This document shows, in pieces, positions 1 to 9,434 of a DNA stretch of 64,000 nt; within the stretch, counting starts at the first letter, position 1; every line of letters begins with the position of its first letter. The translations under genes were made by a program, and so were the position numbers. The notes under the pieces are model-generated. The model did not search any database. It saw only the letters and a list, made by a program, of their open reading frames with translations, and was not told where the DNA came from. Location of the stretch: NCBI RefSeq assembly GCF_057098645.1, contig NZ_CM169472.1, one strand, 5' to 3'.

Positions 1-3000
1 TATTTACGATCGTTGATACTGTTTTTATCCGGTGTGCTGGAGTCGTATGTTTTTTGCACTGGCCAGCCATCAATGGCATGGCCCTGCCAACTGCTGGAAA
101 GGGCGACCAGCGCATCCTGAGTAGGGATGTATTCCGCACCGCAGCCATTCTTACTGGCATCACCAGCTTGTGCCAAGGTAAACAGTGCCCACGTTTCGTT
201 ATCCTCGTCCTGGGACTTACGCTTGTTGGTCACCGCAAGCTCGGCAAACAGTAATGGACGTTTAAAGGTCAGCTCGCCCGCAGTCAGTGTTTCCGGCATG
301 TGACCCCACATCTTCGCCTTGTCAGTATCCGGGCTGGTGGGTACAGTAAAAATGGTGTCCATCGACGCATTTATCGTTGGATCAGAATAGAGCGCTGCAG
401 TGAGCGCTGTTTTGGTGCCATGGGTATCCGGACGAGTGATGGTCAGAATTTTGCTGCCATCAGCGTCGGTTAACGCGGCGTATGCGGTGGCAGAGTCATT
501 CAGTGACGCTTCATCGGACATTCCTGCATCAACCACTACTGGCGAGACAATATTGTCACTACCTGCGACATGTCTTTCATTATTTCGGGTATAGCCATCG
601 CCACGTTTCAGGGTAAACGGCATTCCCGGCATAGGGTTGCCCGCTGTATCTTTCACCGTGACTTTCACTTGTAACGTTTCGCCTTTTTTCAGTTTTGCCG
701 CATTAAGCGTGCTATTCCACTGTGCCTGATCCACGACTTCCAGCGTAATGGTGCTGGCAGGTGGGTTGGCGTCCTTCAGGCAACTCATATATACCCGATC
801 ATTGCCCGTATTCTGAACATTGCCATTATTCAGCCAGACTGAGGCAAGGTGCGGGACTTTATCAATCGGCGTGCTGCTCCAGTACTCTTTAAATACCGTA
901 GGCCAGCCGTGATTGGTTAGGATCCTGTTATTACTGTTCGCATTGTACAACGCAGTCAGTTGTGTTTGACGCGGTACTTTCCGGGTTTCACACCCGCCCG
1001 CCGACGTGTTTTCGATATCGGCCTGTGCGACGATCACCCATTTTTCGTTATTTTCCTCACGCGAGTCTTTGCCATTACTCACTTCCAACAATAATTTCGG
1101 GCGATTAAAGGTCGTGGAGTCAACGGTTATCGTGTCGTCCATGTGCCCCCACATTCTCGCTCCCATCACATCCGGGCTGGTGGGAACGGTAAAGATCACA
1201 TAATAGTTAATAGTGTTCGGCAAAACTGAATTAGGAGGCGTGACAACAAGTCGCGTTCTTAAGCCAACGCCTTGTGGCTGCTCAACAACAACGGTTGCCT
1301 GCCCCTGTGCGTCTGTAATACCGGAGTAAACCATTGAGGATTGTGAGGTACCGTACTGCGTCCCATTCAGGGTTATTGCGCCGTTACTGGGATCGGTAAA
1401 CCCGGTTGCGCTTTCTTCACGGTCAAGACTGATATCTTTGGTAATAGTAAAAGCCGTGAACGGCACCCGCTCGCCATTCAGAGCATTAACTGTGCGCACC
1501 GTCATGGTGATTTGTTCACCGACTTTCGCCCGTGCCAGGCTGCCCGAGGTAGTATCACGATCGGTTGTCACTTCAACCTTCGCCACCATCTCATTACCAG
1601 AGCACGAGAGATAGTTTTGTTTAAAACCGCTATAACTGTCGACGTTCCCTGTTCCGAGGTTTACCGATGAATGCGTTGTCTGCTCCGCGGCAGTTAAATA
1701 GTCCTTTACTGCGGTTGGCCAGCCATACTCAGTCCCGATGATATTGCCAGGGTAAGCCGAATACAGACTTTCCAGTGAGATCTCACGCGGTATATGCCCC
1801 GTGCCGCATTCTGCCTGCATACTGGTATTTTGATCGAATAACGCCCAGTCTTCGTTATTTTCCCGTACTGTGCCTACTTCATGCGTGGTTTCAGCCGCCA
1901 GCAGCGGTCGTTTATATAAACTGCCAGCGTCAATAATGCCGTGCATATGACCCCACATCCGCGCATATTCGCTGTCGGGGCTGGTCACCACCGTAAAGAT
2001 CACATCTTTGGCATCTTCCGCATTGAAATTACTGCGCATTTTCGCCGTAATATGCGTTTTAACACCTGCGCCTTCAGGCTGTGTCAACTGCAGAGTTGCC
2101 TGACCATTGACGTCGGTCATTCCCTCATAATTATGATCATCTACCTTTTGCAGGTTGGTGCCGCCGGAAATTTGTACCGGATGCGCTTCCCACGCAGGGT
2201 CGGTTTGATTTTTGCGGTTAACGCCGTCATCGAGATGCAGCGAGAAGTAGTAATAAGCCAGCGGCTGATTGTTATTTTTTTTATCGGTAATGGTCAGGCG
2301 CATCGTAGTGCTGTCACCGACCTCTGCCTTCGCGGCATTTATACTTTCATCAAAGTTACTGGGCGTGAGCACCAACTCTGGCTCAACATCGGGTTCTGCT
2401 TTATCCACACAGCTCACGATATACTTTGTACTGTCTGGTTTTTGCGCTTCGCTGCGGTTAGACACATCAGCCGCGTGGTGCTGCCCGGTACTTCCTGCCA
2501 GAGATGACCAGTAATAATCACCCTGCATCGGCCAACCGGCGGTCTCCTGAATAGAGTTAGGGATCACCGTAGCCAGCGCGCCAAACTGGCGCATGCCAGG
2601 CAAAATATCGCAGTGGTTATCTGCGCCACTCCAGGTGAAGGTCGACCAGGTTTCACCGTGATCATTCACGCTGCCATCTTCGTTATCAACTTCCGCCGCC
2701 AATTTCGGACGACTAAAGGTGTAATTCATGGCCGTCAGGGTTTCCGCCATATGGCCCCACATATTGGCCTGCGGGGCATCCGGGCTGGTGAGTACAGTAA
2801 ATATCACCGCCGTTTCACTGGTTTGCGAGATGCCAGAAAGGGTGACCACCAGCGGCGTTTTGACACCTGGACCATTGGGCTGCGTCACCGTGACGGTAGC
2901 TGCGCCATCAGCATTAGTCGTGCCCCGATACTCCGTTGCTGTGGTGGTGAGTTCAGTGGTATCAAGATTGACAGGTGAGGTGTTATTCACCACTCCCTGG

Positions 3001-3752
3001 CGGTTTTCAGCATCTTTTCGTTTGATAACAAAAGGGATATTGCCCGCAATATTACCTTCACAATCTTGGGGGGTTACGGTTAAGGTGATTGAACCATCGA
3101 CAGTAGTCTTTGCCGCTTGTAACGTATCGTCATAGCCACTGGCGCTAATTGTCACCAGGTCGCCCTGGGCGGGAGCAATATTCAGCGTCACTTTATGTTC
3201 AGCCAACGGCACCGTCCCCTGATTAGGCACACCAGTTAACGTGTAGAGGTAGAGTAAAGGTAGCGCTTCCTGCTCATTGATTCGCGGCCACGCCACCAAA
3301 GAACGCCCTGCCAGATTCTGCGCGCAGAAAGAGCGGTCCGGGCGCGGTTGTGGGCTGAGCGGCGTATCTGGCGTCGCGGCATCCGCCCACACAAGAGATA
3401 CAGCAGGAGGCGTCTGGTTTTGCCAGCCTAGCACGGGGGGATTAGAAAAAAGATCGCCTTCAGGATCGTGAGGGTTAACCAGAATCATTCTCGCCGCTGT
3501 GTCATCAACACTGAATGCGATGGGTTTTACAGATGCCTGAATGTCGTAGGTTTTGCTCGGATCAAGCTGAACGCTTCCCTGATAAACGGGTACGCTGGCG
3601 CTCTCTGCCCCGGGCACTGTGCCATTGATTGCGTCGGTCGAGATGCCAGTTTGTTGCCACTGGCCACCTTTTAATACTGCCCCAACCTGAAAAGAGAGGA
3701 AGAGCAGAAAAACCGCCGTTATCGCTTTTATCAGTTTCAAAGTCCCGTCCAT
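1..3752 (-). CDS. Giant secreted repeat-domain surface protein, RatA/RatB-like (5' end plus >1,250 codons; 3' end lies beyond window start)
   Basis: Minus-strand ATG at 3752 (plus 'cat' 3750-3752) with signal-peptide-like N-terminus [25 protein letters not shown]; hand translation stays in one frame to position 1; about four ~270-aa tandem units each ending ...FTV(L/V/P)TSPD...MWGHM. Absent from ORF track because no stop codon falls inside the window. Confidence 0.72.
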
Positions 3753-3891
3753 GATTGAAACCTGCCCGTTTAAAGTTATTTTTTCACTTCAACCCACTTT
3801 GCTTAACGCTGGCTAAGCAAAGTGTGCGGAGAAGCACCATTCATTCCCTTGCTGAAATGACCAGATTGTTGACAAAGTGCGCGTTATTCAT

Positions 3892-3990
3892 GCCGGATGC
3901 GGCGTTAACGCCTTATCCGACCTACAAAATCGTGCAAATTCAATACATTGCAGGAACCATGTAGGCCTGATAAGCGAAGCACATCAGGCA
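3892..3990. repeat. REP/BIME-type palindromic units in ratA-like/sivI-like intergenic region
   Basis: gccggatgcggcgttaacgccttatccgacctac and gtaggcctgataagcgaagcacatcaggca match the enterobacterial REP consensus family. Confidence 0.6.
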
Positions 3991-4046
3991 GTTTTGCCTT
4001 TGTCATCAATCTGACCATTCCCTTGCGGGAATGGTGCTGGTAAAGA

Positions 4047-7889: not shown

Positions 7890-8427
7890 CTAAGCCTAAA
7901 CGGCGATGTCCGCGGGTGAAATCATAATCATAAAATATATTCCCCCCCAGAAGCCATTTATCAAAATTATGTCTTACACCTAAACCTATATTACCTATCG
8001 TGCGTTCTTCTTTTCGTTGCGCAGAAAACTGACTGAAATAGACTGTGCTCTGATTGTCATACCAGGGAACAAAATAGTCGATCGAACTGCCGTCCAGATC
8101 GCCACCCTGACCGATGGAAAGGTTAGAGCGAACTTTACCATAAGGAGAAAGCGCACCTTCAATATAAGACTGTGCAGATGATGTGATTTGCCCTTGCAGA
8201 TAGCTTCTCGCCTGGGATTCAAGAGCTTCTGGAGTCAGGTTCTCAAAGCCCTGCTGGGCGGACTCGGTAACGTAATTGGCACCACGTTCCTTGAAAGATT
8301 TGCCTTTGTTACTTTGTTCCTCTTGTTGAGCCGTTTCGCTTGCCAGATCAGGTAATGAAGATTCGCTTTGCTGGTGATGCTGCCAACTTACTGATTTAGT
8401 GTATGATGGTGTTTTTGAGGTGCTCCA

Positions 8428-8703
8428 GTGGCTTCTGTTTCTATCAGCTGTCCCTCCTGTTCAGCTACTGACGGGGTGGTGCGTAACGGCAAAAGCACTG
8501 CCGGACATCAGCGCTATCTCTGCTCTCACTGCCGTAAAACATGGCAACTGCAGTTCACTTACACCGCTTCTCAACCCGGTACGCACCAGAAAATCATTGA
8601 TATGGCCATGAATGGCGTTGGATGCCGGGCAACCGCCCGCATTATGGGCGTTGGCCTCAACACGATTTTCCGCCATTTAAAAAACTCAGGCCGCAGTCGG
8701 TAA
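8428..8703 (+). CDS. insA: IS1 InsA
   Basis: 91-aa [42 protein letters not shown]... Confidence 0.92.
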
Positions 8704-9125
8704 CCTCGCGCATACAGCCGGGCAGTGACGTCATCGTCTGCGCGGAAATGGACGAACAGTGGGGATACGTCGGGGCTAAATCGCGCCAGCGCTGGCTGTT
8801 TTACGCGTATGACAGGCTCCGGAAGACGGTTGTTGCGCACGTATTCGGTGAACGCACTATGGCGACGCTGGGGCGTCTTATGAGCCTGCTGTCACCCTTT
8901 GACGTGGTGATATGGATGACGGATGGCTGGCCGCTGTATGAATCCCGCCTGAAGGGAAAGCTGCACGTAATCAGCAAGCGATATACGCAGCGAATTGAGC
9001 GGCATAACCTGAATCTGAGGCAGCACCTGGCACGGCTGGGACGGAAGTCGCTGTCGTTCTCAAAATCGGTGGAGCTGCATGACAAAGTCATCGGGCATTA
9101 TCTGAACATAAAACACTATCAATAA
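8622..9125 (+). CDS. insB: IS1 InsB reading frame (expressed as InsAB' transposase by -1 frameshift at the ttaaaaaactc slippery site ~8672-8682)
   Basis: 167-aa track ORF overlapping insA; A6C slippery motif present. Confidence 0.85.
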
Positions 9126-9434
9126 GTTGGAGTCATTACCCGCTTTGCTTAATATTTATCTCCGGTGCCGCATAAGCAGCACCAGAAATAACGATTAGCG
9201 TTATATAGCGAATCCATCGCAGCATGTTTTTCCCTGTGAAAATTTAATTCTGAAATAATGTCTAATATTGTATTCCAGATAGCACAGGAACTGCACTCCA
9301 TAAGTGCTAAATATAATCTTAAAATTATAAGAATGTGACTTCACACATTTTTAATTAGTCGTTAATCTAATAGGAAAGAGATTATAATATTTATATTAGG
9401 AATATATAATGTGAAATCATATATTCCAGTGATA

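Follow-up and report, generated by a model that had tools for sequence, protein, structure and literature searches.

Introduction

Dallman et al. (2013) described, in Shiga toxin-producing Escherichia coli (STEC) O117, a 10-kb ratA-sivI-sivH island that is homologous to CS54 of Salmonella and from which shdA and ratB are missing, as they are in S. bongori and S. enterica subsp. II (PMC3739510). Goh et al. (2019) subsequently named an E. coli protein IatB, which is 74% identical to Salmonella SinH and is followed by a homologous downstream gene (PMC6714894). In uropathogenic E. coli (UPEC), sinH-sinI-ratA constitute the ila cluster, deletion mutants of which are attenuated in murine urinary tract infection (Shea et al. 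2022, as related in PMC12928451, PMC12525524 and PMC11420993), and SinH, a surface antigen that is common in phylogroups B2, D, F and G, has been put forward as a vaccine candidate (PMC9937491). Here we describe the sinH-sinI-ratA island at the beginning of a stretch of 64,000 nucleotides, hereafter the window, from contig NZ_CM169472.1 of assembly GCF_057098645.1. The island itself is already known and its E. coli version has been described previously; a first-pass annotation of this DNA took the E. coli module to be poorly described, a view that is outdated by its publication for STEC O117, as IatB/SinH, as the ila cluster and as a vaccine antigen.

What sets the present copy apart is its condition. 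We are highly confident that positions 1-9230 of the window represent the right-hand two thirds of this island (the “ila” locus, a version of CS54 with three genes), situated between xseA and yfgJ-der, that its sinH gene has been destroyed three times over, and that the adhesin module is in decay and most likely no longer functions.

Results

sinH carries three inactivating lesions

The start codon of sinH is found at 9223-9225, and the annotated intact counterpart of the gene in strain C325 (locus L001, 14068-16248) encodes 726 aa; between 5068 and 9225, however, the window offers only fragments of it, in open reading frames (ORFs) of 316 aa, 219 aa and smaller, and nowhere an uninterrupted SinH-encoding frame. 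Two of the lesions responsible are insertion sequence (IS) elements (Table 1). The IS1 copy ends in GGTGATGCTGCCAACTTACTGAT ... AAGTTGGAGTCATTACC, carries insA (8428-8703) and insB' (8622-9125), matches the NCBIfam IS1 family transposase and is enclosed by the 9-bp direct repeat CGCTTTGCT at 8364-8372 and 9141-9149. The IS5 copy is bounded by 16-bp terminal inverted repeats, GGAAGGTGCGAACAAG and CTTATTCGCACCTTCC, and by the 4-bp direct repeat CTAA at 6690-6693 and 7890-7893, and its transposase ORF (6762-7742, 326 aa) scores 367 bits with the NCBIfam IS5 family transposase model (cut-off 140). Because the target-site duplications are intact, both elements arrived by simple transposition. The third lesion is the premature stop at codon 400. 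Even after in-silico removal of the two elements, each together with one copy of its duplication, the sinH frame ends at that codon, and W400* is the sole difference between the IS-free product of the window and SinH of C325.

Hence, sinH is a pseudogene here, from which no SinH transporter can be produced; even if both elements were excised precisely, or any one lesion reverted, the gene would not be repaired. Each lesion takes effect at a different point: IS1 at codon 26 parts the signal peptide and the promoter from the remainder of sinH, IS5 at codon 186 splits the barrel, and TGA at codon 400 removes the passenger. The first-pass annotation had implied three working surface-protein genes, which for sinH can no longer be maintained.

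Table 1. Coordinates in the window of the island genes, of the pieces and lesions of sinH, and of the adjoining genes.
Feature	Position	Strand	Remarks
sinH pseudogene, entire	5068..9225	minus	2181 nt of sinH and 1977 nt of IS DNA and duplicated target sites
sinH 5' piece, codons 1-28, signal peptide	9141..9225	minus	
IS1, 768 bp, inserted at sinH codons 26-28 (signal-peptide region)	8373..9140	plus	
sinH middle piece, codons ~29-186, N-terminal half of beta-barrel	7890..8372	minus	100% identical to L001 15689-16172
IS5, 1196 bp, inserted at sinH codon 186, within beta-barrel	6694..7889	plus	
sinH 3' piece, codons ~187-726, C-terminal barrel half and whole passenger	5068..6693	minus	
Premature stop in sinH, codon 400, TGG (Trp) to TGA	6049..6051	minus	Single C>T at 6049 compared with L001
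sinI, intact, 321 aa	4047..5012	minus	From the ORF listing
Spacer between sinI and ratA, 294 nt	3753..4046		Contains REP-type palindromes
ratA-like gene, 5' 58%	1..3752	minus	Codons 1-1250 of 2139; reading frame 3..3752
Spacer between yfgJ and sinH, presumed sinH promoter region	9226..9434		
yfgJ, zinc-ribbon protein, 71 aa	9435..9650	minus	Core-genome flank
der, ribosome-biogenesis GTPase	9713..11185	minus	Core-genome flank

The protein that has been lost is best judged from the intact ortholog of C325. This ortholog belongs to the SinH equivalog family of NCBIfam (NF033423, 1486.5 bits over residues 1-726, cut-off 999) and has the Pfam domain IAT_beta (PF11924) at residues 64-337 (E = 1e-104). 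By its sequence SinH has the parts of a type Ve (inverse) autotransporter, namely a Sec signal peptide, an IAT beta-barrel (~64-337) and an immunoglobulin (Ig)-like C-terminal passenger (~400-726). The 12-stranded barrel would be inserted by the beta-barrel assembly machinery (BAM), and the passenger would be exported through it, to be displayed on the cell surface.

A tract of seven G residues (G7) is found in sinH at window 7942-7948 (minus strand, codons ~165-167); it is specific to this allele group, the others reading GGGTGGA. Among the 48 complete genomes with the allele, 12 have one additional base in the tract and hence a frameshift, all of them O145:H28/NM, and G8 is found in many O145:H28; one draft reads G6, and the tract is not the same in the assemblies named RM9872 and RM9872-C1. 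Phase variation at this site, clonal frameshifts or sequencing error may lie behind these differences.

The island is a CS54-type gene set reduced to three genes

Since the window begins within ratA, the xseA flank lies outside it and was seen in C325 and in O145:H28 strain RM13516 (locus L004), the loci of which are 99.97-100% identical to it. The RefSeq annotation of such intact loci gives the order xseA, adhesion-domain protein (2139 aa), SinI family protein (321 aa), sinH (726 aa), zinc-ribbon protein and der, and in C325 and RM13516 alike 68 nt separate xseA from a single ratA-like gene, with neither shdA nor ratB between them. The island thus occupies the place by which CS54 is defined, between xseA and yfgJ-der, the latter side being present in the window itself, where yfgJ is followed by der, bamB, yfgM and hisS (ORF listing and six-frame translation).

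These comparisons uphold much of what had been proposed. A ratA-like gene, sinI and sinH, all on the minus strand and directly adjoining yfgJ and der, appear both in the ORFs and in the identical loci, and the block end suggested earlier, 9230, is consistent with the sinH start codon at 9225. The CS54-type identity is borne out by the SinH and SinI models of NCBIfam, both well above their cut-offs, and by the Salmonella-derived RatA, RatB and RatA-like models, all three of which match the large protein with E = 0. Two qualifications are nevertheless in order. The likeness to the CS54 gene set extends to the ratA-sinI-sinH core and ends there, for ratB, like shdA, is absent from the identical ortholog loci; and the 9.2-kb block does consist of island genes, but about 1.96 kb of it is IS DNA.

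SinI and the RatA-like protein

The sinI gene starts 55 nt past the sinH stop. Its product belongs to the SinI family (NCBIfam NF040711, 419.8 bits over residues 7-318, cut-off 165), and exactly this protein recurs in 2379 blocks of public assemblies. After its Sec-type signal peptide come two domains predicted to be beta-sandwiches, and it has no beta-barrel; it found no match in Pfam and no relative among PDB chain sequences at E <= 1. Its last ~110 residues are related to SinH: SinI residues 215-320 (window 4050-4370) and SinH residues 624-725 (window 5071-5376) share 40% identity (E = 3e-17), both proteins terminate in DGVQGYGL, and the cross-matches of the NCBIfam models agree with paralogy at the C-termini. 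By these sequence criteria, SinI ends in a domain paralogous to the distal one of the SinH passenger.

Two further features of SinI deserve mention. The tetrapeptide A-G-Y-C at residues 19-22 (window ~4947-4958), within the signal peptide, is invariant in 13 of 13 orthologs; with Y at position -1 it is not a canonical lipobox. In RM13516 (L004 11837-12730) and RM12761, SinI has 297 aa as against 321 aa here, an in-frame length variant of 72 nt within the same allele group.

The ratA-like gene lies in one open frame that runs from 3788 to the window edge, with its start codon at 3752 (MDGTLKLIK...), so that 1250 codons are visible, all of them open; its ortholog in C325 has 2139 aa and is annotated as “adhesion domain-containing protein”. 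A signal-peptide-like N-terminus and an N-terminal region of ~220 aa are followed by tandem BIg21 (PF05688) and InvE_AD (PF05689) modules, four and three of which, respectively, fall in residues 1-1150 of the window part, compared with seven each in the full ortholog. The protein stays below the equivalog cut-offs of RatA (PRK15315, 1650 bits, cut-off 3700), of RatB (PRK15314, 1888 bits, cut-off 4079) and of the RatA-like model (PRK15316, about 3190 bits, cut-off 3870). It is therefore a member of the DUF823/DUF824 repeat-adhesin family with fewer repeats, and not an equivalog. Domain searches revealed no barrel, lipobox or anchor domain in either SinI or the RatA-like protein.

The lesions are real and of different age

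In a megablast comparison with 5,426 complete E. coli genomes, the best matches covered 83% of window 1-11300 at 99.9-100% identity. Aligned with C325, this region falls into three collinear blocks, 1-6694, 7889-8372 and 9141-11300, and both gaps between them correspond to complete IS elements. Window 1-6694 differs from C325 by 2 substitutions only; apart from the lesions in sinH, the differences in the first 11.3 kb amount to T304 in ratA (S in C325) and one single-nucleotide polymorphism in the yfgJ-sinH spacer, at 9342. In the O145:H28 strains RM13516 and RM12761 the sinH frame is intact and free of the elements, and sinI is shorter; with the hca-yph deletion described below, which the window lacks, these differences show that the window belongs to neither strain.

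Six draft contigs (L038-L043) reveal the order of events. They are 100.000% identical to the window over 1-6694, stop codon included; IS5 is missing at its site in all of them, and IS1 has entered at exactly the junction seen in the window. Half of them (3/6) end 66-77 nt into IS1, as short-read assemblies do at repeats, and ratA is called full length (2139 aa) in these sister contigs. Because they carry the stop codon and the IS1 junction without IS5, the former two lesions are common to a sister lineage known from draft assemblies, and IS5 was acquired later; it is possibly private to this strain. The ORF downstream of the stop codon gives a 315-aa product (ATG start) that occurs in 26 draft-assembly blocks, whereas the 316-aa version of the same SinH C-terminal fragment, starting at GTG, had no record in the assembly look-up.

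It could be objected that IS1 and IS5, being multicopy repeats, are prone to misplacement in assemblies, that neither junction at the sinH site occurs in any of the 5,426 complete RefSeq E. coli genomes, and that both elements might consequently be assembly artefacts that conceal an intact sinH. We consider this very improbable, for both elements are complete and flanked by perfect duplications of canonical length (9 bp for IS1, 4 bp for IS5), six independent draft assemblies break at or run into IS1 at the identical junction, and the stop codon, documented in 26 assembly blocks, is independent of the elements altogether. For IS1 and the stop codon the objection is thereby largely disproved.

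In one of the sister contigs (JADAIL010000067.1 of GCA_015676305.1; L038 2780-5327), the far side of the sinH IS1 joins wcaM of the colanic acid cluster and not the 5' end of sinH, either because IS1 mediated a rearrangement or because the assembly is chimeric. Elsewhere, the remaining backbone of the window is ~100% identical to O145:H28-type E. coli genomes, in which all three sinH lesions are missing. This identity, and the presence of just one IS1 and one IS5 copy in the 64 kb, speak against an origin of the window from Shigella or another IS-rich genome. Window 45143-50352 (5.2 kb, hca-yph), which we take from the gene order of K-12 to hold hcaB'-hcaD-yphABCD, is missing in O145:H28 RM13516, where hcaB, annotated as truncated, abuts yphE; RM12761 likewise has this 5.2-kb hca-yph deletion.

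Distribution suggests an old island, repeatedly lost in E. coli

The block was proposed to be accessory, and it is. In K-12 MG1655 xseA overlaps yfgJ, with nothing between them, so that the interval is clearly not conserved in all E. coli, and of the 5426 complete E. coli genomes, 1744 (32%) have sinH at a coverage of 80% or more. The xseA gene measures 1377 nt in island strains (L001 4888-6264) and 1371 nt in K-12 (L003 6233-7603, its 3' end overlapping yfgJ), which places the island boundary at the very end of xseA. The sinH allele of the window (at least 95% identity) is confined to 48 of the 5426 genomes, mainly O145:H28 and bovine, primate and some human isolates. Alleles of extraintestinal pathogenic E. 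coli (ExPEC) have 78-82% nucleotide identity in sinH, their sinI is not aligned by megablast, and the two SinI types share ~46% protein identity.

The order sinH-sinI-ratA beside der and guaB recurs in E. whittamii, other Escherichia, Citrobacter, Pseudocitrobacter and Superficieibacter. The sharing of this gene order suggests that the island is old and that E. coli has lost it repeatedly, and it does not suggest a recent gain. A search of genome contigs with SinH as the query returned 22 loci (Escherichia, Citrobacter, Pseudocitrobacter, Superficieibacter and distant genera); Salmonella was not among them, probably owing to a poor fit of the exact peptide patterns employed, and the link to Salmonella accordingly rests on the NCBIfam models and the literature.

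Discussion

What the loss of SinH would mean for SinI and RatA

SinI and RatA have signal peptides and neither barrel nor anchor, and thus they would seem to need help to reach the surface or to stay on it, for which SinH is the obvious candidate; by analogy with ZirT/ZirS/ZirU, already drawn by Goh et al. (2019) (PMC6714894), both proteins would probably be presented or released with its help. Expression may be affected as well. The sinH and sinI genes are reported to be co-transcribed (PMC12525524), and since both IS elements, the transposase genes of which are antisense to sinH, separate the sinH promoter region from sinI, expression of sinI is probably reduced in this strain. The ratA gene, judging by its position behind the 294-nt spacer, may be transcribed independently. 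That spacer contains, at window 3862-4012, palindromic repeats of the repetitive extragenic palindromic (REP)/bacterial interspersed mosaic element (BIME) type with 79-92% identity to intergenic DNA of thousands of E. coli genomes. Scanning of 3500-9750 for promoters and terminators yielded no more sites than shuffled sequence and supported no specific promoter, the two weak sigma-70-like matches on the minus strand of the yfgJ-sinH spacer included.

Several points weigh against this part of our interpretation. The putative dependence of SinI and RatA on SinH is based only on gene order, on the absent barrel and on a weak match to the ZirU family (SinI residues 67-213 with ZirU_fam, E = 1e-5, 25.8 bits, far below the cut-off of 100). 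The AlphaFold2 model of SinI, all-beta with two beta-sandwich domains, is of modest confidence (mean pLDDT, the predicted local distance difference test score, 61), and in a Foldseek search against PDB it found nothing at E <= 0.001 and only weak matches to tandem Ig/fibronectin type III (FnIII) domains; the model thus speaks for no more than a generic beta-sandwich fold. Insertions of IS1 or IS5 can also, on occasion, switch on genes beside them. Finally, the 3' 42% of ratA is outside the window, the gene being incomplete solely because the window begins within it and being called full length in the sister contigs.

It is conceivable that SinI and RatA, exported by Sec, find some other route outward and work without SinH, so that its loss leaves a useful two-gene adhesin unit behind. 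This would explain why both genes have stayed open: sinI is complete, no stop interrupts the 1250 codons of ratA that the window shows, and ratA is called full length even in sister contigs where the nonsense change and IS1 are present; the REP-containing spacer leaves room for a promoter of its own before ratA; and in UPEC, according to PMC12928451, phenotypes vary with which of the three genes is deleted. We nonetheless think it unlikely. With only 2 substitutions in 6.7 kb relative to strains with an intact island, the open frames may just reflect recent inactivation, both proteins are devoid of a barrel, lipobox and anchor domain, and co-transcription has been reported for sinH and sinI (PMC12525524).

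An observation on the two partner proteins bears on how they may be handled. Directly after the signal peptide, both SinI and RatA have a motif of ~20 residues, W-x(8-10)-T-x-x-(I/F)-x-G-T-(V/I)-P; SinI 35-55 (window ~4848-4910) and RatA 27-47 (window ~3612-3674) agree in 11 of 21 positions (pairwise E = 0.001). The motif comes in two versions, LK.GQWQ...TG.I.GTVP and AAW...TAEF.GT.P, and over 13 loci from five genera the two proteins carry matching versions, TAEF-x-GT-x-P at four loci and TG/TD-x-I-x-GTVP at the other nine. The overall divergence of RatA does not track this split. The joint switching is accounted for by linkage of adjacent sequence. What linkage leaves unexplained is the resemblance between the N-termini of SinI and RatA within a type, itself modest (7/17 residues within a type and 3-6/17 between types, in a hand alignment). 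As a speculation that we would not bet on, the motif may serve both proteins as a tag for docking or export that is read by SinH or some other partner common to them, which would make the island a true three-part secretion/adhesion machine. If so, sinI and ratA in this sinH-dead strain would encode stranded cargo, and in any case the shared motif offers a cheap and testable lead on the handling of barrel-less partners.

Neutral decay or selected loss

Three lesions in a single gene of 2.2 kb, with no other copy of IS1 or IS5 in the remaining 62 kb of the window (one of each in 64 kb), raise the question of whether inactivation of sinH was adaptive, in that loss of an immunogenic surface adhesin was selected for in this enteric or bovine-associated lineage. 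SinH is indeed strongly immunogenic, and 26 of 334 sinH sequences have premature stops (PMC9937491); the additional base in the G7 tract recurs in a quarter of the complete genomes with this allele (12/48); E. coli E69 (CP089930.1, L018 10663-11436) has an independent IS1 in sinH, at a different site and in a different allele; ratA has likewise been struck elsewhere, by IS1 in strain 100416 (L002 2056-2753) and by an IS3-family element in UTME-3 (L034 9977-11190); and in both Salmonella Typhi and Paratyphi A, sivH, ratB and shdA have convergently become pseudogenes (PMC2658671). Once the first knockout had occurred, however, further hits in sinH were neutral, and with neighbours such as der, bamB, hisS, ispG and isc, which are mostly intolerant of insertions, clustering in sinH is expected even without selection. 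The authors of the Salmonella study could not separate selection from drift either (PMC2658671). We thus regard selected loss as rather unlikely. Irrespective of the cause, this divergent sinH allele appears prone to inactivation, via the G7 tract and via IS hits.

The practical meaning of these findings is limited mostly to correct annotation: in this lineage sinH is a pseudogene with three lesions, and SinH-based typing and estimates of vaccine coverage should therefore not count the lineage as positive. The proneness of the allele to inactivation is relevant to all who use SinH as an antigen or marker.

Comparison with known systems

Of the systems to which the island can be likened, intimin and invasin share the type Ve architecture with SinH, that is, an IAT_beta barrel with a C-terminal Ig-like passenger. 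SinH nevertheless scores only 248 bits with the intimin model (cut-off 1400), LysM was not detected in it, and its passenger is short (~330 aa), with no C-type lectin tip detected. The organisation of the whole island recalls that of ZirT-ZirS-ZirU of Salmonella, where an IAT-barrel gene is likewise followed by genes for barrel-less, all-beta partners with signal peptides; RatA, with 2139 aa, is however far larger than ZirS or ZirU.

A further relative is CS54 of S. Typhimurium (shdA-ratB-ratA-sinI/sivI-sinH/sivH; Kingsley et al. 2003), the flanks and sinH-sinI-ratA core of which are homologous to those described here (PMC3739510, PMC12928451). The island of the window departs from it in being devoid of shdA and ratB, in agreement with the three-gene islands of S. 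bongori, S. enterica subsp. II and STEC O117 (PMC3739510), and in having a RatA-like protein with 7 repeat modules that scores below all three equivalog cut-offs. In E. coli the counterpart is the ila locus of UPEC and other ExPEC (CFT073, UTI89, ST131): the allele of the window is divergent from it and rarer, and its sinH is a pseudogene, but the three genes, their order and their chromosomal site between xseA and yfgJ-der are the same.

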